Shown in pieces: positions 3,790-29,984 of a stretch of 34,868 nucleotides of DNA (position 1 is its first letter; every line of letters begins with the position of its first letter). Source of the stretch: Symbiobacteriaceae bacterium (GTDB lineage Bacteria; Bacillota; JAAYKD01; WRDA01). The stretch covers positions 1 through 34,868 of the forward strand of contig WRDA01000002.1 of NCBI GenBank assembly GCA_009783675.1, given 5' to 3'. The notes under the pieces are model-generated. The model did no database searches. It saw nothing but the letters and a program-made list of their open reading frames with translations, and was not told where the DNA came from. Both the position numbers and the translations under genes were made by a program.

Positions 3790-4836
3790 GTGATGGCATT
3801 GATTCCAGTAGGAAAACTGACTCCACAGCAACTTCATGAAGCTGTTTTCAAGTATAGAGGTTACCAGAGGCCAGAAGTTCTCCTTGGTTCATCTCTGGGC
3901 GAGGATGCTGCTGTTATCGCTTTTGGTCCGGGACAAGTGGTAGTCTCAACGGATCCTATTACAGGCGCATCCTGTCGTTCAGGTTGGTTAGCCGTACATG
4001 TGGCTGCCAACGATGTCCTGTGCAGCGGCGCTGAACCTGTGGCTTGTCTGATTACAATTCTAGCGCCTCTAAATACAGAGGAGAGTAAGATTGCAATAAT
4101 CATGAAAGAAGCTTCAGAGGCTGCCCAGGAGCTTCAAATGGAGATTTGTGGCGGACATACGGAAGTAACCGACAGTGTGAACAGAATCATCATCTCCACA
4201 GTAGTACTCGGGATAAGAAACGAAGAATTATTCCCAGGAAACCTGTGTATTGAACCGGATAGTGCAATAGTGGTCAGTAAACCGGTCGGCTTGGAAGGAT
4301 CTGCTATTCTGGCCAGAGATTACCATCGCCAACTCAGTGGATTTATGGAAAGCAGTGAGTTGGAAGAATTATCATCTTTTTTTAATTCGATCAGTGTTGC
4401 CAGGGAGAGTCGTATCGCTGTACGACATGGTGTCATGGTTATGCATGATGTTACCGAAGGGGGAATCCTTGGGGCCTTATTCGAAATGTCTTTGTCCAGG
4501 AATATGGGCTTCACCCTGGAGGAAGAAGCGATCCCGATTCATCCCCTGACTCATAAACTCTGCCAGATTATGCACGCCGATCCTTTACGACTCATCTCCA
4601 GCGGATGTCTGATCATTGTCTGCCGTGTAGGTGAAACGCTGGTAAAGGAGTTAAGGGAGCAAGGCATGGATGCCGCTGTGGTTGGTCACTTTACCTCCAG
4701 GCAGGAGCGGATCATGCTTCGCAGAGACTCCTCGTCGGGATGCATGGAACGTCATATCATAGACCAACCATCAGGGGATGCTCTGTGGGATATACAGGCC
4801 AGGCTTACGCCCTCCGTCAAGCATCATGATCCCTGA
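3790..4836 (+). CDS. AIR synthase-related (PurM/ThiL/HypE/SelD superfamily) protein
   Basis: 348-aa ORF with GEDAAVI and DPITG motifs N-terminally and GGHT in the middle, typical of the AIRS N and C domains. The precise function cannot be assigned from sequence. Confidence 0.7.
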   Translation: MMALIPVGKLTPQQLHEAVFKYRGYQRPEVLLGSSLGEDAAVIAFGPGQVVVSTDPITGASCRSGWLAVHVAANDVLCSGAEPVACLITILAPLNTEESKIAIIMKEASEAAQELQMEICGGHTEVTDSVNRIIISTVVLGIRNEELFPGNLCIEPDSAIVVSKPVGLEGSAILARDYHRQLSGFMESSELEELSSFFNSISVARESRIAVRHGVMVMHDVTEGGILGALFEMSLSRNMGFTLEEEAIPIHPLTHKLCQIMHADPLRLISSGCLIIVCRVGETLVKELREQGMDAAVVGHFTSRQERIMLRRDSSSGCMERHIIDQPSGDALWDIQARLTPSVKHHDP

Positions 4837-5779
4837 AAGTAACTATACACACCAGAGTGTGATGACAGATGAAGTGGTAGCTTCACTGGCTGCACAACAT
4901 CCTGGCCTCTATCTAGACTGCACATTAGGTGGAGGCGGGCATAGCAGGGCTATCCTGACGACATGCAAAGATTGTCATGTAATTGGTGTTGACCGAGATC
5001 CTGCTGCGATAGCTGCAGCCAGACTTTACCTTGATGATTATCGGCAGGCGATTACTCTGGTCAAGGGAAATTTCAGGGACCTCGATGTAATTGTCAGAGA
5101 GCTGTTCCCTACGATGACGAATCCTTTGCTGGATGGCATCGTGTTCGATTTAGGCGTCTCTTCACCACAGTTGGATGACGAAAGTCGTGGCTTCAGTTAC
5201 TGGGGCAGCCATGAGTTGGATATGCGGATGGACTCCACACAACAGCTGACTGCTGCAATCATCCTTAGCGAAGCATCCGAGGACGAACTCACTCGCATTA
5301 TCCTCGAATACGGTGAGGAGCGCTGGGCATCGCGTATAGCAAGTTTTATCATCAAAGCAAGAGAACACACAAGGATAGAAACCGTGGATCAACTGGTGCA
5401 CATCATCAGTGATGCCATACCCGCAGCAGCCAGACGCCAGGGAGGGCATCCCGCCCGACGCACCTTCCAGGCTTTACGTATAGCCGTGAACGACGAGTTA
5501 GGAGCCTTGCAGGAAGCTTTACCTAAAGCTACAGAGATGCTAAAGCCTGGAGGAAAGATGGTGGTAATCAGTTTCCACTCCTTAGAGGACAGGCTTGTAA
5601 AAGCTTTCTTCAGCGAAGCTGCAAATCCATGTAAGTGTCCCCCCAGATATCCTTGTGTCTGTGGCCTAAAGCCAATACTCAAGCTATATAATCCTAAAGT
5701 CGTATATGCTTCATCTCAGGAAATACTAAAAAACCCCAGGGCGCGCAGTGCAAAGCTGCGTGTTGCTCAACGTATATAA
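4826..5779 (+). CDS. rsmH: 16S rRNA (cytosine1402-N4)-methyltransferase
   Basis: Motifs HQSVM..EVV, DCTLGGGGHS, DLGVSSPQLD and SFHSLEDR are classic RsmH/MraW. I chose the in-frame ATG at 4826, which overlaps the upstream stop by 11 nt, over the ORF-track start at 4778, based on normal N-terminal length. Confidence 0.88.
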   Translation: MIPESNYTHQSVMTDEVVASLAAQHPGLYLDCTLGGGGHSRAILTTCKDCHVIGVDRDPAAIAAARLYLDDYRQAITLVKGNFRDLDVIVRELFPTMTNPLLDGIVFDLGVSSPQLDDESRGFSYWGSHELDMRMDSTQQLTAAIILSEASEDELTRIILEYGEERWASRIASFIIKAREHTRIETVDQLVHIISDAIPAAARRQGGHPARRTFQALRIAVNDELGALQEALPKATEMLKPGGKMVVISFHSLEDRLVKAFFSEAANPCKCPPRYPCVCGLKPILKLYNPKVVYASSQEILKNPRARSAKLRVAQRI

Positions 5780-5923
5780 GCGAAAGGTGGAGGGATCCTG
5801 TCAGCATTAAGGAAAGAAGAGACATGGATTCCAGAGAAGACAGAGGCGCCTCGCAGATATCATGTACCCAAACTTCGCCGCAGACGCTCTCATCTCTGGC
5901 CCTGGCGACGCCTGATTCTGCTC

Positions 5924-6157
5924 ATGCTTATCCTTGGCGTATTAGTCCTGCTGCAACTCAGAGGATATGCCGAAGAGACCAGTCTCTCTTTTCAGATTGA
6001 GGAGAAAACTAAAGGTCTCAACAGCGCGCAGAACTCTACTGAACGTCTCCGAATGGAAATACATCGGGAGAACTCTCTGGAGAGTCTGGAACGAAGAGCA
6101 CAGGAACTGGGATTTACCAAGGCAACACCGCAGCAGTATGCTTCTGTCTTAAGATAA
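5924..6157 (+). CDS. ftsL: FtsL-like cell division protein (septum formation initiator family); the true start is probably upstream and non-canonical
   Basis: It sits between rsmH and the mur genes. It has a single hydrophobic segment followed by a heptad-like coiled coil (EETSLSFQIEEKTKGLNSAQNSTERLRMEIHRENSLESLERRAQELG). The frame is open back to the rsmH stop at 5779, and that stretch encodes a basic juxtamembrane region. Confidence 0.6.
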   Translation: MLILGVLVLLQLRGYAEETSLSFQIEEKTKGLNSAQNSTERLRMEIHRENSLESLERRAQELGFTKATPQQYASVLR

Positions 6158-6190
6158 TTATGCTCGAGGTAGGAAGATGGAGGATCTCCC

Positions 6191-7579
6191 ATGCTAAACC
6201 TTGTACCATCACAGATTGCCCGCATTGTAACTGGGCAAGCTTTCGGTTCTGATGACAGACCCGTCTCAGGGGCTGTCAGTGACAGTCGACTAGTTCGTCC
6301 AGGGTCATTGTTTGTCGCCCTCCGAGGTGAAAGAACAGATGGACATGACTATGCAAATCAGGCTCTGGCCGCAGGTGCTTCTGCTATTCTAACTGAGGAG
6401 TATATTGACGGACTCAGCCCGCAGATAGTGGTGGAAGACTGCCGCAAGGCACTTGCTGAGCTGGCACAGTTTCAATTGCAAAGATATCCTGTCCGCATCA
6501 TCGGCATAACGGGAAGCATGGGCAAGACCTGTACCAAGGACTTGACAGCTTCCGTTTTAAGCCAGCGTTTTTCCGTTCATAAGAGTGAAGGGAACAGGAA
6601 TACCGAGGTATCTTTACCAATGACCATCTTCGACCTGGAACCTCATCATCAGGTAGCGGTGCTTGAGATGGGTATGGTGGCACAGGGAGACATTGCAGAG
6701 TTATGCGCAATCGCCCCTCCTGATCTTGCGATAATCTGTAATATCCTGGAGGTTCATTTGGAACGCTTCAACTCCATTGATGAGATAGCCGATACGAAAG
6801 GTGAAATATTCCAGGCTTTAAGCTCCAAAGGAATCGCTCTGGTCAATAATGATGATCCCAGGGTCGTCGCTCAGAGCCGCAAAGCTTTGGGGCGTAAAGT
6901 CAGTTATGGCCTCACTCACCAGGCAGATATGATGGCTACCGACATCTGCAGTCATGGGATTGAGGGCAGCACTTTCTCACTTATTTTTCCGGATGGTGCG
7001 CAGCAAGTAATCCATCTCTCGCTACCAGGTGTCCACATGGTTAATAATGCTTTACCAGCTGCTCTGGCAGGTCACCTCATGGGGATGACGCCTGTGGAGA
7101 TTGCCTGCGGTCTATCCCAGGCTACACTCTCGGACCAACGCCTCCATATCCGGGAACTGGCCAAAGGCATCACACTGGTTGATGATAGCTATAACTCTAA
7201 TCCTTATTCTGCAGAGGCAGCTTTGCGACTGGTGGCTGACATCCGACAGGAGCGCCCTCTCTTTATCGTTCTTGGAGATATGCTGGAGTTAGGAGAACAC
7301 AGTCGAACTGCTCACCTGAAAGTGGGAAGACTTGTCGCTGATCTGCACCCGGATTTTGTGCTAACTCGAGGTGAACTCTCAGCCCTCATTGGAAAAGAAG
7401 CGGCTAATCATGGTATGCCTGAAGAGAGAGTCCAGCACTTTACCGATAATGAAGAGACTCTCGGGGGCTTAAGAGAGGTGTTGGTACCTGGAGCCCTGGT
7501 CCTGATAAAGGGTTCGAGGGGTATGATGATGGAAAGGATTGTCGAGGGTTTACTGACTGACACCCTCAGGAATGTGTAA
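6191..7579 (+). CDS. murF: UDP-N-acetylmuramoyl-tripeptide--D-alanyl-D-alanine ligase
   Basis: 462 aa. It has an N-terminal DSRLVRPGSLFVALRGERTDGHDY motif, a GITGSMGKT P-loop and the MurF-specific DDSYNSNP motif (MurE and MurC instead carry DYAH). A GGAGGA SD lies 6 nt upstream. Confidence 0.9.
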   Translation: MLNLVPSQIARIVTGQAFGSDDRPVSGAVSDSRLVRPGSLFVALRGERTDGHDYANQALAAGASAILTEEYIDGLSPQIVVEDCRKALAELAQFQLQRYPVRIIGITGSMGKTCTKDLTASVLSQRFSVHKSEGNRNTEVSLPMTIFDLEPHHQVAVLEMGMVAQGDIAELCAIAPPDLAIICNILEVHLERFNSIDEIADTKGEIFQALSSKGIALVNNDDPRVVAQSRKALGRKVSYGLTHQADMMATDICSHGIEGSTFSLIFPDGAQQVIHLSLPGVHMVNNALPAALAGHLMGMTPVEIACGLSQATLSDQRLHIRELAKGITLVDDSYNSNPYSAEAALRLVADIRQERPLFIVLGDMLELGEHSRTAHLKVGRLVADLHPDFVLTRGELSALIGKEAANHGMPEERVQHFTDNEETLGGLREVLVPGALVLIKGSRGMMMERIVEGLLTDTLRNV

Positions 7580-8555: not shown

Positions 8556-9917
8556 ATGATTTTCAACGGTAAAAAGGTTTTGGTTCTCGGAGCGGCTCGT
8601 AGTGGAGTGTCTGCTGCCAAAGTTCTCAAAGAAGCCGGTGCTCAGGTGACAGTCAACGATACGGCTGAGGCAGACAGGTTAACAGCAGATATTGCCGAAC
8701 TTGCAACCGAGGGGATTTCTCTGATCTCCGGTAGCCATCCTCTTTCCCTACTGGAGGATGGGTATGACCTAATCGTAAAGAACCCTGGTATTCCTCCTTC
8801 CATCCCCTTTCTTCAGGAAGCTCGCAACAAAGGGATAACCATCCTTAGCGAAATTGAACTCGCGTATCAGGTGAGTAGAGGCCGTCTGATCGGAATCACC
8901 GCTTCCAATGGGAAGACCACTACGACGACCTGGGTGACAGAGATGCTTAAACGTGATTTTCCCGGAGTCATAATGGCTGGGAATATCGGTATCCCTCTCT
9001 CTTGGGAAGCTGCCAACTGTGAGCAGAATACCTGGCTGGTCGTAGAGCTCTCAAGTTTTCAACTCCATGATATCGATGAGTTCCGTTGTGAGATCGCGGC
9101 GATTCTAAACATTTCCCCTGCTCATCTCGATTGGCATGGAAGCTTCGAGAGTTACATGGCTGCAAAGGAAAACGCAATCATCAACCAGACTCACCATGAC
9201 ACAGCGGTGCTCAATGCAGACAATGAGATTACGCGAGAAATGGCACAGAGAGCTAAAGGCAGAGTCCTGCAGTTTAGTCGCCTCGATGCTGTAGAAAAGG
9301 GAGCTTATATCCGTAATGATGAGATCTGGCTACGCCTGGAGAATCAGGAAACTGCACTTCTGGCTTGCGACGATCTGGGGGTCGCTTATGGGCATAACAT
9401 CGAGAATGCTATGGCGGCTTCTTTAGTTGCTGTTGCTGCCGGGGCAAGATTAGAGAGCATAAGAGATGCTTTGCGGGGATTCAAGGGGTTGGCTCACCGC
9501 TTCCAGGTGGTAGCAGAGCTTAAGGGACGTACCTTTATTAACGACTCCAAAGCAACAAATCCCGGAGCTTCAGAAATTGCTCTTATTCTACCCGGAAAAC
9601 CAATAGTCCTCATAGCTGGCGGTCTGGAGAGAGGAATCGACTTAGCGGGGTTTGCCAAGCAGATCGCTAGATACTGTCGGGGAGTAGTCCTTATCGGTCA
9701 GACCTCGCAGCGTCTGGCCGATGATCTGCGCAGCATCGGGTTTACTAATTATCATATGGCTAAAGATATGGCCGAAGCAGTTCCTCTGTCTTACAGCCAA
9801 TCACATGAAGGGGATGTTATACTACTCTCCACCGGTTGTGCCAGTTGGGATATGTACAGTAACTATGATGTCCGTGGGGATGATTTCATCGCTCAGGTCC
9901 ATAAATTAAGTCGATAA
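8556..9917 (+). CDS. murD: UDP-N-acetylmuramoylalanine--D-glutamate ligase
   Basis: Motifs are MIFNGKKVLVLGAARSG (Rossmann-type N-terminus), GITASNGKTTTT and NDSKATNP. I used the ATG at 8556; the ORF-track start at 8406 lies inside mraY. Confidence 0.9.
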   Translation: MIFNGKKVLVLGAARSGVSAAKVLKEAGAQVTVNDTAEADRLTADIAELATEGISLISGSHPLSLLEDGYDLIVKNPGIPPSIPFLQEARNKGITILSEIELAYQVSRGRLIGITASNGKTTTTTWVTEMLKRDFPGVIMAGNIGIPLSWEAANCEQNTWLVVELSSFQLHDIDEFRCEIAAILNISPAHLDWHGSFESYMAAKENAIINQTHHDTAVLNADNEITREMAQRAKGRVLQFSRLDAVEKGAYIRNDEIWLRLENQETALLACDDLGVAYGHNIENAMAASLVAVAAGARLESIRDALRGFKGLAHRFQVVAELKGRTFINDSKATNPGASEIALILPGKPIVLIAGGLERGIDLAGFAKQIARYCRGVVLIGQTSQRLADDLRSIGFTNYHMAKDMAEAVPLSYSQSHEGDVILLSTGCASWDMYSNYDVRGDDFIAQVHKLSR

Positions 9918-19359: not shown

Positions 19360-20502
19360 ATGCAACGACGCATCATGGGTAAACTTGGACATGAGGTCTC
19401 ATTACTTGGGTTCGGAGCTATGCGCCTTCCTCTGTTGGATAGCAGCGATAGCAAATCCATCGACTTTACTGAAACCACAAGAATGATTCGCGCGGCTATT
19501 GATGGCGGGGTATCCTACATTGATTCGGCTTATGTGTATCATGGTGGTATGTCTGAAGTTGCTTTAGCCAAGGCTCTTACCGATGGCTATCGAGAGAGAG
19601 TCTTCCTGGCGACCAAGAGTCCGACCTGGATGCTTAAAACACCTGAAGACTTCGATAGGTATCTCGAAGAGTCCTTACAAAGGTTGGAGACGGACTGCAT
19701 CGACTTCTATCTGCAGCATTCACTGAGCCGGGATGGTTGGCAACAATTTAAGGAGATGGATTTGTTCCAGCGCGGACAGGCTGCCAAGGCTGCAGGTAAG
19801 ATCCGCTACTTTGGCTTTTCCTTCCATGATAGTCTTGACGTATTTCAGGAGATCCTGGATGCGTACCCCTGGGATTTCTGCCAGATTCAATATAACTATC
19901 TGGATGTAGATTACCAGGCAGGGAAAGCCGGGCTTCAGGCTGCCGCGGCCAGAGGCATTCCGGTCATCGTCATGGAACCGTTGCGCGGCGGTCGTCTGGC
20001 TTCCGGAATACCCGATGAGATTGGGGAGATGCTAAGCAGCATGCATCCGGATCGATCACCAGTGGAGTGGGCTATACGATGGCTTGCCGATCAGCCGGGA
20101 GCCACTGTCATCCTCTCTGGCATGAGTACCCTGGAACAGGTTGAGCAAAACGTGGCGATCACCAGCAGTGAGGAGCTGACTGTGGGATGTATGAGCAGTG
20201 AGGAACAGAGCCTGATAAGTGAGGTTGCTTCCCTTTGGCGTAAACGTATAAAGGTCCCCTGCACCGAGTGTCAGTACTGTTCAGCTTGTCCTCAGGGCAT
20301 CAATATTCCGGAGTTATTCTCGGGATACAACAGTGCTTCCATGTTCGACACCTGGGATCAAGCCAGGAAACGTTACGCAAGCCTGGTGGGTGAAAAGAAA
20401 GATGCCACTGTCTGTATCGCCTGCGGTGCTTGCGAAAGTGTCTGTCCTCAGCATATCCCCATCATCGAGACGCTAAAAACCATTGACAAGGCTTTACATT
20501 GA
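19360..20502 (+). CDS. aldo/keto reductase fused to a C-terminal 4Fe-4S ferredoxin-type domain
   Basis: 380 aa. The N-terminus LGFGAMRLP...IDSAYVYHGG is AKR-like. The C-terminus carries CTECQYCSACP and CIACGACESVCP cysteine clusters. Confidence 0.8.
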   Translation: MQRRIMGKLGHEVSLLGFGAMRLPLLDSSDSKSIDFTETTRMIRAAIDGGVSYIDSAYVYHGGMSEVALAKALTDGYRERVFLATKSPTWMLKTPEDFDRYLEESLQRLETDCIDFYLQHSLSRDGWQQFKEMDLFQRGQAAKAAGKIRYFGFSFHDSLDVFQEILDAYPWDFCQIQYNYLDVDYQAGKAGLQAAAARGIPVIVMEPLRGGRLASGIPDEIGEMLSSMHPDRSPVEWAIRWLADQPGATVILSGMSTLEQVEQNVAITSSEELTVGCMSSEEQSLISEVASLWRKRIKVPCTECQYCSACPQGINIPELFSGYNSASMFDTWDQARKRYASLVGEKKDATVCIACGACESVCPQHIPIIETLKTIDKALH

Positions 20503-20541
20503 ATAACTAACGACAGATCTGAGAGGAAAGAGGGTAGTATC

Positions 20542-21762
20542 ATGCAGCAACGTCAAATGGGTTCTCTGGGAGAACAGGTGTCCCTGCTGGGTTTTGGAGC
20601 CATGCGTCTGCCAACCATAAATGGGGAGAACAGCAAGATCGATGCACCTGAAGCCATACGAATGATGCGACATGCTTTCGATAACGGTGTTAATTACGTC
20701 GATTCCGCTTGGGGATATCACGGAGGTAATTCGGAACTTATCGTCGCACAGGCTCTAAGAGATGGATATCGTCAGCGCGTACAATTGGCGACTAAGAGTC
20801 CGACCTGGCTCCTGGAAACAGCAGAGGATTTTAGCTCCTATCTGGATCGCCAGTTGCAGAAACTCGAAACCGACCATATCGACTATTACCTACAACACGG
20901 TTTAGGACGAGATCGCTGGTTAAAGTACAAGGAACTTGGTGTCTTTGCAGCGGCTCAGAGAGCCAAGGATCAAGGAAAGATCAAGCACTATGGTTTCAGT
21001 TTCCATGACAAAGCAGAAACTTTTCAGGAGATAATTGCAGAGTACCCCTGGGATTTTTGTCAGATCCAGTATAACTACCTGGATGTGGACAACCAAGCGG
21101 GTCGTCAGGGGTTGCAGGCTGCTCACGCCAAGGGGATGGCGGTGGTCGTCATGGAACCCTTAAGGGGTGGACGCCTGGCTGCAGGGCTGCCTTCTCAGAT
21201 CAGCGAGATGTTGCAAAGAGGGGAACGAGAGCTGCAGGATCAGGTGGTGCAGCGCCATCCTGCGGAGTTTGTCGATGTGCATCGTTTTATTTTTGAACAT
21301 GGTAACGAGTTTACTCATCCGGTAGAATGGGCTTTTCGATGGTTGGCTGATCAGCCGGAAGTGTCTCTGATCCTATCCGGGATGAGCACCATGGCACAGG
21401 TGGAGCATAACCTCGCTATCTGCAGTTTACCAGGCATGGTGACAGGTAACATGAGTCCGGAGGAACGCAACCTCCTCGCTGCTGTAGCCAAAGCCTGGCA
21501 GGCCCGCATCAAGGTGAACTGTACCGATTGCAAATATTGCATGCCCTGCCCCCAGGGTGTGGATATTCCAGCCTGCTTCTCCCGCTATAATACGGCAGCC
21601 ATGTTCGATGCCTGGGAGCAGGGTAAAAAAAGCTATTCCCGCCTTAGCGAAGAGCAGCATGATGCCAGCCATTGCATAGCTTGTGGAGCATGTGAGGCAG
21701 CTTGTCCTCAGAAACTGAGCATAATCAACGCACTAAAGGAACTCGATGCAGCTTTGCGTTGA
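20542..21762 (+). CDS. aldo/keto reductase fused to a C-terminal 4Fe-4S ferredoxin-type domain (tandem paralog)
   Basis: 406 aa and collinear with the preceding gene (LGFGAMRLP, FCQIQYNYLDVD, VMEPLRGGRLA, CTDCKYCMPCP, CIACGACEAACP). It has an extra internal segment. Confidence 0.8.
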   Translation: MQQRQMGSLGEQVSLLGFGAMRLPTINGENSKIDAPEAIRMMRHAFDNGVNYVDSAWGYHGGNSELIVAQALRDGYRQRVQLATKSPTWLLETAEDFSSYLDRQLQKLETDHIDYYLQHGLGRDRWLKYKELGVFAAAQRAKDQGKIKHYGFSFHDKAETFQEIIAEYPWDFCQIQYNYLDVDNQAGRQGLQAAHAKGMAVVVMEPLRGGRLAAGLPSQISEMLQRGERELQDQVVQRHPAEFVDVHRFIFEHGNEFTHPVEWAFRWLADQPEVSLILSGMSTMAQVEHNLAICSLPGMVTGNMSPEERNLLAAVAKAWQARIKVNCTDCKYCMPCPQGVDIPACFSRYNTAAMFDAWEQGKKSYSRLSEEQHDASHCIACGACEAACPQKLSIINALKELDAALR

Positions 21763-26436: not shown

Positions 26437-26487
26437 AGATGCCAGGCTTTCGGCTGTTCCCTTACTCTCAGCTTTTGCATGTAGAAG

Positions 26488-26528
26488 CTCCTCTTTTTAA
26501 GCCTGGGCTTAAAAAGAGGAGTTTCTTT
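26488..26528 (+). terminator. strong Rho-independent terminator
   Basis: ctcctctttttaag and cttaaaaagaggag form a 14-16 bp perfect stem, followed by tttcttt, 52 nt after the dnaI-like stop. Confidence 0.85.
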
Positions 26529-26582
26529 ACATTATCCAGACCAATGTGGCACATCTCCAGATAAGGCCATCATCACTATCAT

Positions 26583-26591
26583 TTATCCACA
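26583..26591 (+). promoter_or_regulatory. perfect DnaA-box 9-mer TTATCCACA
   Basis: An exact consensus 9-mer lies at 26583-26591, with an 8/9 copy (TTATCCAGA) at 26532-26540 in the same orientation. Both are in the intergenic region. This is sequence-level only. Confidence 0.35.
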
Positions 26592-26637
26592 CCCTTTTAA
26601 AACATAATATATACGATAATATTTTCTAACTTAACTA

Positions 26638-26666
26638 TTGACATATGGACACCATGATGATATAAT
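26638..26666 (+). promoter_or_regulatory. consensus sigma-70 promoter
   Basis: TTGACA (26638-26643), an exact 17-nt spacer, then TATAAT (26661-26666). An AT-rich tract precedes it (about 26598-26637). A GAGGAGGG SD at 26680-26687 and the ATG at 26694 follow. Confidence 0.7.
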
Positions 26667-26693
26667 CCCTTCAGAAGACGAGGAGGGATATAG

Positions 26694-27827
26694 ATGCAGG
26701 AAGAGAGACTGGTTGTGATAGAACTGGTTGAGTGTAACTCTATCGCAGCAGCAGACGGACGTAAGATACTGGAGCTTCTCAGTGAGGAGAACAATGCTCT
26801 GACAGATCCGCAGTTGAAGAAGCTCAGGATGCATACTCTGCAATGGTTAAGCAGCAGAGAGATTACCTCGGCACAGACTTTGGCACTGATTTCAATTTTT
26901 CACAAAGTGGTTGGAATTATGCCGGGAGGTGAACTGAGCGTTAAAGCACTCGCAGAGATCTCTGTGTTAATGCAGATGAAGGATGCCAGATCTATCGAAT
27001 CAAGAGTTCTGGTTATACTGGCTGAAAAAATCCTTCATCAGAATCAACAGGATCCAACAGGAGTAAAACATGCCGAGCGAATCGGGATTCTAAACATGGC
27101 TCAGACTTTGAAGATCACATGCACAACTGCAATGGAACTACTTGATGCCTTGATGAACCCACAGGACATGCCAGCAGATCAGATAACTGTTAAAGAGCGG
27201 GGTCGCTCCACGTCCCGGGCTGTTGAGTCGGATAGTCAAATCAGGCATCGTATAACTCAGGAAATGCATCGTTTCAGACCCGAAGCTCTACTAAGGAAAG
27301 ACAGAGAGAATACCAGCTCTTTTCTTCAACAGGGAGACCTTCGTCAGAGCATACGCAGTGAAGTCGATCATGCGTTGCAAACAGGCCGCATATCCCAAGC
27401 GAGGAACTCGACTACAGTACCTCTGCAAAGATCAGAGGCCACCAAACCGCCAAACCTGGATCAATCAAGATTAAGCATTCTAGCTGACCAACTCCACGAC
27501 GCTCTCCGACAACTGGAGATACGTTGTCAGGCTTTGGAGCAGGAATGGGCTTCAATAAACCGCACCCCATTAAAGGGTTCCACTGATGCTGTGCTGCATC
27601 GGATCAGATCTCAGCTGGCTACTGCTCGTACACAAATGGCTGCCGTTATTGAAAGTAGATCGTTGCTGGAACAGCATCTTACTATGGAACGCCCTGATGA
27701 AGCCCGCTACTTCAACGAGCTGATTAGCTATGCTGTGAGTTCTTTAAACAAGAGTGATCAACAACTGCGAAACCTCGAGTTGGGCGTAATTGAATTAGAA
27801 TCGATCCAAAAACCAGAGATCATATAA
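26694..27827 (+). CDS. hypothetical protein, predicted soluble and helical with a coiled-coil-like C-terminal third
   Basis: A 377-aa ORF with a strong SD and promoter. It has no transmembrane segment, no nucleotide-binding or catalytic motif, and no family I recognise. Confidence 0.65.
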   Translation: MQEERLVVIELVECNSIAAADGRKILELLSEENNALTDPQLKKLRMHTLQWLSSREITSAQTLALISIFHKVVGIMPGGELSVKALAEISVLMQMKDARSIESRVLVILAEKILHQNQQDPTGVKHAERIGILNMAQTLKITCTTAMELLDALMNPQDMPADQITVKERGRSTSRAVESDSQIRHRITQEMHRFRPEALLRKDRENTSSFLQQGDLRQSIRSEVDHALQTGRISQARNSTTVPLQRSEATKPPNLDQSRLSILADQLHDALRQLEIRCQALEQEWASINRTPLKGSTDAVLHRIRSQLATARTQMAAVIESRSLLEQHLTMERPDEARYFNELISYAVSSLNKSDQQLRNLELGVIELESIQKPEII

Positions 27828-27897
27828 CCAGGTCTCAGACATATCACTGCAATGCGATCCAGTGATGAAAGATACATGCGAAACGAGGAGGATTATT

Positions 27898-29289
27898 ATG
27901 TCAGAAAAAAATGAAAAGCTGCTGATCCTGGAGATGCTCAAGGAAGGCAAGATTAGTGTAGAGGAAGCACAGCGTCTGCTCGAGGCAGTAAGCGCTCCCT
28001 CTCCGGTTCGCCCAGCGGCCGCATTAACTCCGGACAAAGATGATATTGATGATGCAGAAGCCGATAATGATCAGACCCTGTTCGGTGATACTACCTTTAG
28101 TAATGAGCGAGAATTTAAAGACGCCTTGAGGCAGACCGCTAAGGAAGCTTCTCGCGTAGCCAGAGAAGCAGCCAGGCAAGTTCGTCACGAAATGCGGGAA
28201 GCAGAGAAGCAGCTGCGAGAAGAGTTGAGAGAGGCAGCTCGTTCGGCCAAGGTCGAAGCCAGAGAAGCACAGCAAGAGGCTCGAGAGGCTCAACGAGAAG
28301 CCAAGAGAGAAGGAGAACGTTTACGTGCTGAAGCGGACAGGCTCTCCGCCAAACTGAGAGCCGCTGCAGCTGAGACTGCTGAAGAAGCTACTCGTGAAGG
28401 TGGTTACCTCGATGGATTGTTCTCTTTCTTCGAGCGCAGTCCAGGGTTCGATATATTTGGTAGTAGCTTCCGTACCGAGATGGTCCAGGAAGGCAACTTT
28501 TCCTCAGAGTACAAGGTGGATATGCCACGGGATACCTATCTTCCCGCTCCCAGGCAGATACGAATCAATGTGCATACAGCCAACGGGCGTATTATCATCA
28601 GAGGCTGGAACGAAGATTATTTTCGCATGACAATTAATGCAACTGTCAAGGCTAGTAGCGCTGATGAGGCCAAAGGAAAACTCGATAATATGCTTATCTG
28701 TTCCCAGTCCCCTGAAATGCTGTTTGTAGACGGTCGTGCCTTCGTTGGTAACCACAATGGCATTTCGGTGGAGATTTGGCTACCGCGTTGTTATCAGTAT
28801 GAGATGGATCTCAAGGGATCCAACGGGAGGGTTTTACTTGAAGACCTGTATGCTCAGGGATTAGAAGTCAGCACCTCCAACGGTCGCTTAGAGCTAAGTG
28901 ATATCGTAGCTAAAGTAGCAAGGCTAAACAGCTCCAATGGCAGCATAATCTGCGATACGGACATTGAACTGTTAGCTGCCCATAGCTCCAATGGCAGCGT
29001 ACGGGTTACAACCAGCAGACAGGAGACCAACTCCTTTGATATTACGACATCTAATGGCAATATTAGTGTCGGAGTGCGAGATTGCAGCAGCCTGGCTCAT
29101 GATTTCGATCTCAAGACCTCAGGGAAGATTCATGTCGACCTTCCTGGTGCCATTGGTGGACTAAAAGTCGACAAAACAACCAGAATGCAAAGCACTACCA
29201 ACGGATTCGAAGGATATGGGAAGAGAGTGCGAATTTCAGCCAGGACAAGTAATGGTTCTATTCGCATTACCGAAACCAAAGATGAGTAA
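27898..29289 (+). CDS. LiaX/YvlB-like protein with a DUF4097 beta-repeat domain
   Basis: The N-terminal motif LLILEMLKEGKISVEEAQRLLEAV matches the YvlB/LiaX N-terminal helix. An E/R/A-rich segment follows. The C-terminal half has repeated (S/T)SNG(R/S/N) strands (GSNGRVLLED, TSNGRLELSD, SSNGSIICDT, SSNGSVRVTT, TSNGNISVGV, TSNGSIRITE). ATG 27898 follows a GAGGAGG SD; the ORF-track start at 27862 is an extension. Confidence 0.7.
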   Translation: MSEKNEKLLILEMLKEGKISVEEAQRLLEAVSAPSPVRPAAALTPDKDDIDDAEADNDQTLFGDTTFSNEREFKDALRQTAKEASRVAREAARQVRHEMREAEKQLREELREAARSAKVEAREAQQEAREAQREAKREGERLRAEADRLSAKLRAAAAETAEEATREGGYLDGLFSFFERSPGFDIFGSSFRTEMVQEGNFSSEYKVDMPRDTYLPAPRQIRINVHTANGRIIIRGWNEDYFRMTINATVKASSADEAKGKLDNMLICSQSPEMLFVDGRAFVGNHNGISVEIWLPRCYQYEMDLKGSNGRVLLEDLYAQGLEVSTSNGRLELSDIVAKVARLNSSNGSIICDTDIELLAAHSSNGSVRVTTSRQETNSFDITTSNGNISVGVRDCSSLAHDFDLKTSGKIHVDLPGAIGGLKVDKTTRMQSTTNGFEGYGKRVRISARTSNGSIRITETKDE

Positions 29290-29313
29290 TCCTGAGATCA
29301 ATGCAGCGGGAGG

Positions 29314-29658
29314 ATGATGAAAATGTCTTCTGTCTTAGTAAGTATTCTGATTATGATGGCTCTACCATACATCCTGCCAGGGATAACCGTGATTAGCCTT
29401 GGATCTGCAGTTGCAGCAGCGATTATTCTAGGTATCGCTAACGCGGTGGTGCGCCCGATACTCCAGTTCCTATCCATACCGTTGACTTTACTAACCTTCG
29501 GCCTTTTTTACTTCGTAGTGAATGGTGCAATGGTTATGCTGACCTCTGGCTTGGTCCCGGGATTCTACGTGAACGGTTGGTGGACAGCAATCATCGCGGC
29601 TGCTATTATTTCAGCTGCAAACAGCTTTTTTCTGAAAAAGCAAAGATATACTTTTTAA
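29314..29658 (+). CDS. DUF360 / phage-holin-4_2 family small membrane protein (YvlD/LiaZ-like)
   Basis: 114 aa with four hydrophobic segments. The pattern GIANAVVRPILQFLSIPLTLLTFGLFYFVVNGAMVMLTSGLVPGFYVNGWW is typical of the YvlD family. The start could be 29314, 29317 or 29323. Confidence 0.7.
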   Translation: MMKMSSVLVSILIMMALPYILPGITVISLGSAVAAAIILGIANAVVRPILQFLSIPLTLLTFGLFYFVVNGAMVMLTSGLVPGFYVNGWWTAIIAAAIISAANSFFLKKQRYTF

Positions 29659-29673
29659 AGACAAGTAGCACCA

Positions 29674-29716
29674 GGACCCCTCCGGCTGCATTGTAGAGAT
29701 GGAGGGGTCTGTTTTG
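29674..29716 (+). terminator. Rho-independent terminator
   Basis: gacccctcc (29675-29683) pairs with ggaggggtc (29701-29709), followed by tgttttg. Confidence 0.7.
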
Positions 29717-29743: not shown

Positions 29744-29785
29744 GCACGAAGTGGCAGAAATAATCTGCCACTTCGTGCGATTTTA
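29744..29785. terminator. 15-bp perfect hairpin; second terminator, possibly serving the minus-strand tRNA operon
   Basis: gcacgaagtggcaga (29744-29758) pairs with tctgccacttcgtgc (29764-29778) around a 5-nt loop, followed by gatttta on the plus strand. It lies 45 nt past the 3' end of tRNA-Trp on the minus strand. Confidence 0.6.
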
Positions 29786-29822: not shown

Positions 29823-29896
29823 TGGCAGGGGTGGAGAGATTCGAACTCCCGTACCTGGTTTTGGAGACCAGAGTCCTGCCGCTGGACGACACCCCT
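29823..29896 (-). tRNA. trnW: tRNA-Trp (anticodon CCA)
   Basis: The reverse complement AGGGGTGTCGTCCAGCGGCAGGACTCTGGTCTCCAAAACCAGGTACGGGAGTTCGAATCTCTCCACCCCTGCCA folds as a cloverleaf. The anticodon loop is CTCCAAA, the T-loop is TTCGAAT, the discriminator is G and the CCA end is encoded. Confidence 0.95.
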
Positions 29897-29907
29897 GTAT
29901 AGATCAA

Positions 29908-29984
29908 TGGTCGGGGCGAGAGGATTTGAACCTCCGGCCTTTTGGTCCCGAACCAAACGCGCTACCAAACTGCGCTACGCCCCG
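29908..29984 (-). tRNA. trnP: tRNA-Pro (anticodon CGG)
   Basis: The reverse complement CGGGGCGTAGCGCAGTTTGGTAGCGCGTTTGGTTCGGGACCAAAAGGCCGGAGGTTCAAATCCTCTCGCCCCGACCA folds as a cloverleaf. The anticodon loop is TTCGGGA and the CCA end is encoded. Confidence 0.95.

Follow-up and report, generated by a model that had tools for sequence, protein, structure and literature searches.

The 34.9-kb stretch of contig WRDA01000002.1 analysed here (hereafter the window), from a Symbiobacteriaceae bacterium, holds a unit of three same-strand open reading frames (ORFs), genes 1 to 3, that resembles the yvlABCD operon of Bacillus subtilis and the liaXYZ operon of Enterococcus. Our reading, to which we give a probability of about 0.6, is that the unit is a local, chromosomal housekeeping form of the uvr-adjacent YvlB/YvlD (LiaX/LiaZ-type) membrane module of Bacillota, a module akin to the phage shock protein (PSP) system, and that it works by the mechanism proposed below. 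What is shown directly is gene structure, domain content, conserved gene order and synteny. Modules of this type are already known, as is the architecture of gene 2; SHOCT-like proteins in Toastrack neighbourhoods have also been described in general terms (Ravi et al. 2024, PMC11237479). What appears to be undescribed is the family of gene 1, whose members strictly lead PspC-less Toastrack/DUF360 operons of a deep, uncultured Bacillota clade, together with the organisation of the unit, which combines a consensus promoter with the lack of a regulator. An initial annotation of this DNA had already delimited a self-contained three-gene unit with its own consensus promoter. The ORFs, a promoter matching 12 of 12 consensus positions and the flanking hairpins bear this out, with small corrections to the start codons.

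Domain content of the three genes

The last two genes of the unit had initially been likened to yvlB/liaX and yvlD/liaZ, and domain searches agree. Gene 2 carries a SHOCT-like domain at residues 5-32 (PF22746, E = 1.8e-10, 40.4 bits for a cut-off of 27 bits) and a Toastrack/DUF4097 domain at residues 304-457 (PF13349, E = 1.5e-10, 41.3 bits for a cut-off of 22.9 bits), and its middle part is a charged coiled coil or helical segment of about 100 residues (approximately 70-175). The SNG(S/R) strand repeats of the Toastrack domain are invariant over 10 orthologues, and orthologue identity ranges from 34 to 60%. Profile scans of GTDB and of metagenomes found few close relatives, the best GTDB one being 34% identical ('uncultured Clostridia bacterium'). 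Gene 3 matches PF04020 (DUF360) along model positions 6-105 of 105 (E = 3.3e-29, 102 bits, cut-off 28.8) and has hydrophobic windows at about residues 1-79 and 86-104. It is a membrane protein of the YvlD/LiaZ family, probably with the four transmembrane (TM) segments that the family name indicates.

Gene 2 had also been proposed to be a LiaX-type surface or sensing protein, and this part of the initial annotation is not supported. Against the NCBIfam LiaX model (NF038025) it reaches 39.8 bits for a cut-off of 350, through residues 305-408 in the Toastrack part only, and against the LiaG model it reaches 36.3 bits for a cut-off of 285. Neither a signal peptide nor a TM segment was found in it, the highest Kyte-Doolittle mean over 19 residues being 0.82. 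Judged by these profile scores gene 2 is a YvlB-type protein and not the equivalog of LiaX or LiaG. Between its coiled coil and its Toastrack domain lies a motif that is strongly conserved among orthologues, LDG...F..E...GF(D/N)(I/V)F(G/D)(S/N)(S/N)(Y/F), at about residues 170-191 (28400-28460). This aromatic/glycine motif may insert into the membrane or bind a partner.

Gene 1 was initially considered a protein of no recognisable family. No Pfam or NCBIfam match exceeds its cut-off (those to AlbA, DUF2247 and AA_kinase score far under theirs and were dismissed), and a search of 5.8 billion proteins by word index returned gene 1 itself only. Searched exhaustively with phmmer, 1.84 billion cluster representatives yielded seven clusters of relatives (E < 1e-10, 27-44% identity, 268-467 residues); an eighth match (E = 3.6e-05), to a repetitive protein, seems spurious. 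A profile search with the C-terminal domain retrieved two proteins only. Yet, profile comparison shows that gene 1 contains repeats of the SHOCT-like domain with which gene 2 begins. The probabilities given in Table 1 were obtained with hhalign by comparing sub-alignments of the gene 1 family with a SHOCT-like profile. Repeat 4 is the one in common with the short family members (~300 residues), and when the profile of the gene 1 family (A2) is compared with that of the gene 2 family (A3) this repeat aligns to residues 5-34 of gene 2 (93%). In the related locus L003, the gene of ~300 codons directly 5' of the gene 2 orthologue encodes a protein that aligns to gene 1 (BLASTP E = 4e-14) and bears a bona fide PF22746 domain, to which repeat 1 aligns. 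PF22746 is matched unaided by 7 of the 11 family members (best E = 3.7e-8). A further bihelical unit at about residues 80-119, third in order, is visible only in the structural model (hhalign 11%). By these comparisons gene 1 holds three, and probably four, degenerate SHOCT-like bihelical repeats. Gene 1 was ruled out as a paralogue of the N-terminal half of gene 2, the alignment being limited to the SHOCT-like unit of ~30 residues.

The signature domain of the gene 1 family is a C-terminal three-helix bundle that no Pfam model covers. The AlphaFold2 (AF2) models of gene 1 and of a short-form relative are all-helical; that of gene 1 has a mean predicted local distance difference test score of 76, rising to ~90 in both folded domains, i.e. 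the N-terminal repeats and the C-terminal bundle. The linker is predicted to be disordered: it is modelled at low confidence, varies in length and is rich in Arg and Glu in some homologues. With these two models Foldseek found in the PDB nothing beyond generic three-helix bundles (designed bundles, spectrin repeats, syntaxin Habc; best E = 0.13-0.16). A hydropathy scan of gene 1 revealed no TM-like segment.

Related loci and known modules

We fetched related loci (numbered L001 onwards) and tabulated their gene neighbourhoods. A hidden Markov model (HMM) of the gene 1 C-terminal domain matches ORFs in 14 of the fetched sequences. All 14 lie directly 5' of a gene 2-like gene, save for that of the short contig L010, which precedes the start of a gene encoding a SHOCT-like and acidic protein. 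The order gene 1-like, gene 2-like, DUF360, with short gaps, is found in the window and in L003-L009, L051, L062 and L072/73. In L011 (the GTDB 'uncultured Clostridia bacterium') a DUF2089 gene is followed by gene 1-like and gene 2-like genes, after which the contig ends; the DUF2089 protein combines PF22747, PF09862 and a weak PF22746 tail. The initial annotation had made its case depend on gene 1 co-occurring with LiaX/YvlD homologues, and the C-terminal domain of gene 1 is indeed directly 5' of gene 2 orthologues wherever its position is readable in distinct relatives. Identities between the window and L003-L011 are 48-51% for UvrC, 43-48% for gene 3, 34-40% for gene 2 and 23-25% for gene 1. 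Given the figure for UvrC, the adjacency of genes 1 and 2 has outlived deep divergence. The uvr/dnaD/dnaC neighbourhood is common to the window and its relatives, and adjacency to uvrA is common with the yvlABCD operons of Bacillaceae. A conserved gene of 391 codons lies between uvrA and uvrC in L003 (L003:2763-3938, minus strand), with equivalents in L005-L009. It belongs to no Pfam family, has a sub-threshold Peptidase_M28 match only and is missing beside uvrC in the window.

The closest relatives of gene 2 (57-60% identity) show another arrangement, in which a second Toastrack gene precedes the gene 2-like and DUF360 genes (L001, L002). Both contigs begin within a poly-Asp tract of this Toastrack paralogue. 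L080, from the same sample as L002, has a long gene 1-like gene and then a SHOCT-like gene that enters a poly-Asp/Glu tract where the contig stops, and L010 shows the same gene start. Very probably, L080 and L002 are a single locus (gene 1-like, Toastrack paralogue, gene 2-like, DUF360) split by assembly. The paralogue, with its SHOCT-like head and a long tract of ~20-35 acidic residues, is visible in L080:2685-2906, L002:2-859, L001:3-947 and L010:1122-1301. All four of these assemblies have a contig end at the tract, which thus seems to break short-read assembly. The unit in the window is without this paralogue.

How does the unit compare with known modules? The yvlABCD operon of B. subtilis, a member of the sigma-W regulon, encodes YvlA (a DUF4870 membrane protein), YvlB (SHOCT-like plus Toastrack), YvlC (PspC) and YvlD (DUF360). 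Gene 2 has the architecture of YvlB and gene 3 belongs to the family of YvlD, and the two systems also have in common the operonic arrangement, the order of these genes and the uvr neighbourhood. The initial comparison of genes 2 and 3 with the first and last genes of yvlABCD is thus right about the families but wrong about position, since YvlB is encoded by the second gene. Unlike yvlABCD, the unit lacks YvlA/DUF4870 (gene 1, its first gene, has no match to the DUF4870 of YvlA) and YvlC/PspC, and is led by a gene for SHOCT-like repeats and a three-helix bundle. Gene 2 differs from the YvlB of Bacillaceae by its long charged coiled coil, being ~100 residues longer and 22-30% identical. The promoter also differs: it is of sigma-A consensus type, and no sigma-W-type motif (TGAAAC-N16-CGTA, at most one mismatch) was found in the window, though the host may not have sigma-W.

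The absence of a PspC component, pointed out initially, was confirmed: an HMM made from the YvlC-type ORFs in the Bacillaceae loci that we fetched matches no ORF in any of the six frames of the window or of its closest related loci. This loss is not special to the locus. Bacillaceae loci are organised as uvrA, yvlA (DUF4870, seen in L018), yvlB, yvlC (PspC), yvlD and hprK. Ten sister loci of Bacillaceae type retain a PspC of 66-76 residues, and seven have adjacent yvlB and yvlD without it (L018, L020, L024, L026, L027, L048 and L054). Hence, PspC loss is not unique to the window and seems recurrent within Bacillaceae.

The liaXYZ operon of Enterococcus, controlled by LiaFSR, encodes LiaX, LiaY (with PspC) and the holin-like LiaZ. 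Like it, the unit encodes in one operon a protein with a helical N-terminus and a DUF4097 domain, followed by a PF04020 membrane protein. It differs in the failure of gene 2 to match the LiaX model, in the lack of LiaY and, within the window, of LiaFSR, and in the extra gene upstream. The lmo2487-2484 psp-like operon of Listeria monocytogenes, with two Toastrack genes and a holin-like DUF360 gene, recalls the arrangement suggested for L080 plus L002, and that of L001. Yet, Listeria retains PspC domains, both free and fused, whereas the window has one Toastrack gene and no PspC.

The DUF2089/Toastrack 'four-gene context' of Ravi et al. (2024) resembles the unit in gathering several SHOCT-like proteins around a SHOCT-like-Toastrack protein. 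It often ends in DUF360 and often lies beside uvrBA (L074-L077, L015, L029). Several Bacillota metagenome-assembled genomes match it, with uvrBA followed by a divergent DUF2089 gene, a SHOCT-like-Toastrack gene, a short SHOCT-like gene with an alpha/beta C-terminus, an unknown gene and DUF360. The accessory protein of this context has ~120-130 residues, consists of a SHOCT-like and an alpha/beta C-terminal domain and is encoded downstream of the Toastrack gene. In the window the accessory gene is instead upstream and encodes 377 residues, with probably four repeats and a three-helix-bundle end, and there is no DUF2089: an HMM of this family, run over the window, matched nothing significantly (at best 8.7 bits, over the SHOCT-like part alone), and L003-L009 have no DUF2089 ORF either. 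L011, with DUF2089, gene 1-like and gene 2-like genes, bridges the two types. The idea that gene 1 arose by fusing the short SHOCT-like gene and the unknown gene of DUF2089-type operons was rejected: the HMM of its C-terminal domain misses both, and the alpha/beta domain found there is a different one. These operons have, between the short SHOCT-like gene and DUF360, a gene of 133-182 codons without Pfam match (L074:8036-8437, L076:8047-8595, L077:5009-5476, L015:8523-9071), whose product has one hydrophobic segment in L015.

The fetched loci thus make up a series, nearly all next to excision-repair genes, in which the window and L003-L009 have lost DUF2089. The unit in the window is therefore the positional and compositional counterpart of yvlABCD and liaXYZ, with another accessory gene.

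Proposed mechanism and alternatives

We propose that gene 3 would be the integral-membrane component and gene 2 a cytoplasmic, membrane-proximal scaffold. The Toastrack beta-helix of gene 2 would give docking surfaces, and its SHOCT-like head and coiled coil would mediate membrane association or oligomerisation. This is in line with arguments that Toastrack is an intracellular sub-membrane assembly platform and that SHOCT-like domains are inner-leaflet anchors (Ravi et al. 2024, PMC11237479); YvlB of B. subtilis, itself SHOCT-like plus Toastrack, is predicted in the same work to be intracellular and sub-membrane. Gene 1 would be a lineage-specific accessory subunit that docks to gene 2 or to the inner leaflet through its SHOCT-like repeats and presents its three-helix bundle for further interaction. 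It would fill the accessory slot held elsewhere by YvlA and PspC, or by DUF2089 and a short SHOCT-like protein. In two-hybrid assays YvlB binds PspA, LiaH and Yvl membrane proteins (PMC9239133). LiaY and LiaZ contribute to membrane remodelling and to the redistribution of anionic-lipid microdomains, unbalanced LiaZ being deleterious (PMC11601895), and a yvl-like operon of Listeria is induced by bacteriocin (PMC12791056).

The unit has no linked regulator, the window has no sigma-W-type motif, and the perfect sigma-A promoter recurs ahead of the gene 1-like gene of L005, so basal expression of the unit is probably high rather than dependent on induction by a dedicated sensor. The initial label of a variant envelope-stress system is a fair one for a unit whose stress responsiveness is putative and whose promoter is of perfect housekeeping-type consensus. 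In L005 two perfect 12/12 sigma-70 promoters occur within 3 kb (6999-7027 and 9728-9756), ahead of the gene 1-like gene and of the ABC-transporter genes downstream; perfect consensus promoters may be common in this clade.

Several points weigh against the reading of the unit as a Yvl-like housekeeping module with the above mechanism. From the domains and the gene order we infer where the products reside, that genes 1 and 2 make contact, that the unit protects the membrane and how it is expressed. The contact is the weakest step of the picture, suggested solely by the shared domain type and by adjacency. The SHOCT-like repeats of gene 1 are under Pfam detection in gene 1 itself. The direct adjacency of genes 1 and 2 is not universal, given the Toastrack paralogue immediately 5' of gene 2 in L001 and L002, and gene 1 diverges fastest of the unit (23-25% identity, compared with 38-40% for gene 2). 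To our knowledge the function of YvlB and YvlD is unknown even in B. subtilis. Finally, LiaX of E. faecalis is reported at the cell surface although it has no signal peptide (PMC6936494), and an extracellular role of gene 2 is therefore conceivable.

That last observation leads to a different reading of gene 2, as a LiaX-like protein that would be exported or surface-exposed, sense cationic peptides or lipopeptides and gate its membrane partner, with gene 1 as a cytoplasmic helper. The coarse architecture is the same, a helical N-terminal half and a DUF4097 C-terminal half; residues 305-408 match the LiaX model in part, and gene 2 is paired with a LiaZ-type gene. The LiaX biology invoked is drawn from PMC6936494 and PMC11601895. 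But gene 2 falls far under the LiaX cut-off and matches through the Toastrack part only, it lacks a signal peptide and any TM segment, the window contains neither LiaY/PspC nor LiaFSR, and Toastrack is argued to be intracellular (PMC11237479), so that we give this reading low odds. Slightly less improbable is a role of gene 1 in signalling, in which its SHOCT-like repeats would bind the SHOCT-like tail of an unlinked DUF2089-type (zinc-ribbon-helix-turn-helix) factor, or compete with gene 2. In that case the unit would form the sensory arm of a circuit controlling transcription, similar to the DUF2089/Toastrack four-gene context, for which Ravi et al. propose signalling to transcription. The DUF2089 gene directly 5' of the gene 1-like and gene 2-like genes of L011 fits such a partner switch, as do the DUF2089 genes that head related Toastrack/short-SHOCT/DUF360 operons in L013-L016, L029, L052 and L074-L077. 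Yet, neither the window nor L003-L009 has a DUF2089 ORF, the promoter looks unregulated, with a perfect consensus and no obvious operator, and heterodimerisation of SHOCT-like domains is undocumented. Also unlikely, though we would rank it ahead of these two, is that gene 1-like proteins are core subunits of PspC-less Toastrack/DUF360 modules, taking over the coupling role of PspC or acting as membrane-binding effectors other than PspA. If so, the deep, uncultured Bacillota clade would have a distinct PSP-like system.

One might also see in gene 1 a highly divergent PspA/ESCRT-III-like membrane-remodelling effector recruited by gene 2. Positions 176-318 of the family profile (A2; window ~27220-27650) weakly match human CHMP1B (E = 0.0014, 21 bits) in an alignment of ~140 residues that includes an MDxxxxxxxxLD motif, and YvlB interacts with PspA and LiaH in two-hybrid assays (PMC9239133). 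Yet, composition bias accounts for 8.7 of the ~21 bits and the aligned region partly spans the low-confidence linker. None of the 11 family members matches Snf7 or PspA_IM30 at E <= 1, and no ESCRT-III, PspA or Vipp1 structure is among the Foldseek top 50 for the two models. With no Pfam or Foldseek backing, the CHMP1B match probably reflects coiled-coil composition, and we regard this effector as very unlikely. The least probable reading is that gene 1 is unrelated in function to genes 2 and 3 and merely under the same promoter, or that the unit is a phage-derived holin cassette. It could appeal to the lack of a Pfam or NCBIfam assignment for gene 1 and to PF04020 being named a phage holin family. 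But the adjacency is retained across lineages with ~50% UvrC identity, genes 1 and 2 have the SHOCT-like domain in common, the flanks are housekeeping genes and there are no phage genes. The native origin of the unit is backed by its G+C content (47.7% against 48.7% for the window) and by searches of PADLOC and PHROGs, which gave zero matches for the three genes; on the same grounds, together with the native flanks, a phage lysis or defence-system reading was rejected.

If the unit is indeed a Yvl-like module, it matters because modules of the Yvl/LiaXYZ type influence how well cells tolerate daptomycin, bacteriocins and other membrane-active agents, while the mechanism of Toastrack/DUF360 systems is unsolved. 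The clade offers a pared-down version, with no PspC, YvlA or linked regulator and with one dedicated soluble partner that has the SHOCT-like domain of the Toastrack protein. Should genes 1 and 2 bind through these domains, this would be the first concrete assignment of a partner to a SHOCT-like domain in a PSP-like system and a simpler target for reconstitution. Naturally, the payoff is limited by the facts that the organism is uncultured, that the gene 1 family is very small and that the overall theme is already on record from bioinformatic work.

Boundaries of the unit and its surroundings

The features of the unit are collected in Table 1. Gene 2 is preceded by a GAGGAGG Shine-Dalgarno sequence (27885-27891), and the GTG listed as its start (27862) probably lies too far upstream. 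Gene 3 probably starts at the ATG at 29323, as suggested by the contig gene call and by the N-termini of homologues, which leaves ~33 nucleotides (nt) between genes 2 and 3. RNA folding gives no stable structure at the junctions between genes 1 and 2 and between genes 2 and 3 (z = +1.0 and +0.2). The promoter is the sole site of the window with at most one mismatch to the consensus (chance expectation 0.15). A search for operators there found just a short AT palindrome (26615-26626), rejected as too short to convince. The initial annotation had the unit bracketed by two strong terminators. The upstream one is a 21-nt inverted repeat with 95% complementarity that closes the uvrC-dnaD-dnaC-like operon; the downstream hairpin is weaker than stated there. 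A pattern scan for terminators missed this hairpin, probably because its loop exceeds the 3-8 nt limit of the scan. The bidirectional terminator further downstream is common to the unit and to the convergent tRNA-Trp and tRNA-Pro genes (29823-29984, minus strand).

Table 1. Coordinates of the three-gene unit, its control elements and the domains of gene 1 (positions in the window; aa, amino acids; RBS, ribosome-binding site)
Feature	Position	Strand	Details
Upstream intrinsic terminator, left boundary	26483-26526	+	-30.2 kcal/mol, z = -7.35; followed by TTTCTTT
Sigma-70/sigma-A promoter, TTGACA-17-TATAAT with TG extension	26638-26666	+	12/12 consensus match
Gene 1	26694-27827	+	377 aa; RBS GAGGAGGG at 26680-26687
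Gene 1, SHOCT-like repeat 1 (aa 2-32)	26697-26789	+	hhalign against SHOCT-like profile 97.6%, E = 3.6e-12
Gene 1, SHOCT-like repeat 2 (aa 45-71), degenerate	26826-26906	+	hhalign 85.7% probability
Gene 1, SHOCT-like repeat 4 (aa 127-155)	27072-27158	+	hhalign 97.1%
Gene 1, C-terminal antiparallel three-helix bundle (aa 259-372)	27468-27809	+	AF2 helices 259-290, 297-329, 334-372
Gene 2	27898-29289	+	463 aa from ATG at 27898
Gene 3	29323-29658 (listed 29314-29658)	+	111 aa (114 aa from 29314); RBS GGGAGGA 29307-29313
Terminator-like hairpin, right boundary	29674-29710	+	-23.3 kcal/mol, z = -3.0; followed by TGTTTTG
Strong bidirectional terminator	29744-29778	both	15-bp stem; -29.1 kcal/mol, z = -9.8

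Pfam scans of the large ORFs found no two-component system (histidine kinase, response regulator), PspA/LiaH or LiaF in the window, in agreement with the initial remark that no LiaFSR-type sensor or regulator is nearby. Upstream of the unit they identify the dcw cell-division cluster, two aldo-keto-reductase/ferredoxin genes, an AP endonuclease 2-family protein, UvrC, DnaD and a DnaC/IstB-like ATPase, and downstream chromate transporters (chrA), Hsp33 and urocanase. Going by these Pfam assignments, the other large ORFs of the window have housekeeping functions only.

The dcw genes (window 4778-7579) come in the order mraW, Mur ligase, mraY, murD, ftsW, murG, murC, ddl, ftsQ, ftsA and ftsZ. Between the end of mraW (5779) and the start of the first Mur ligase (6191) there is no ORF of at least 100 aa, and the usual ftsI/penicillin-binding-protein gene is therefore absent at that position. 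Two tandem paralogues at 19360-21762 encode an aldo-keto reductase fused to a C-terminal 4Fe-4S dicluster domain. They are followed, just 5' of uvrC, by a gene for an AP_endonuc_2/xylose-isomerase-like TIM barrel.

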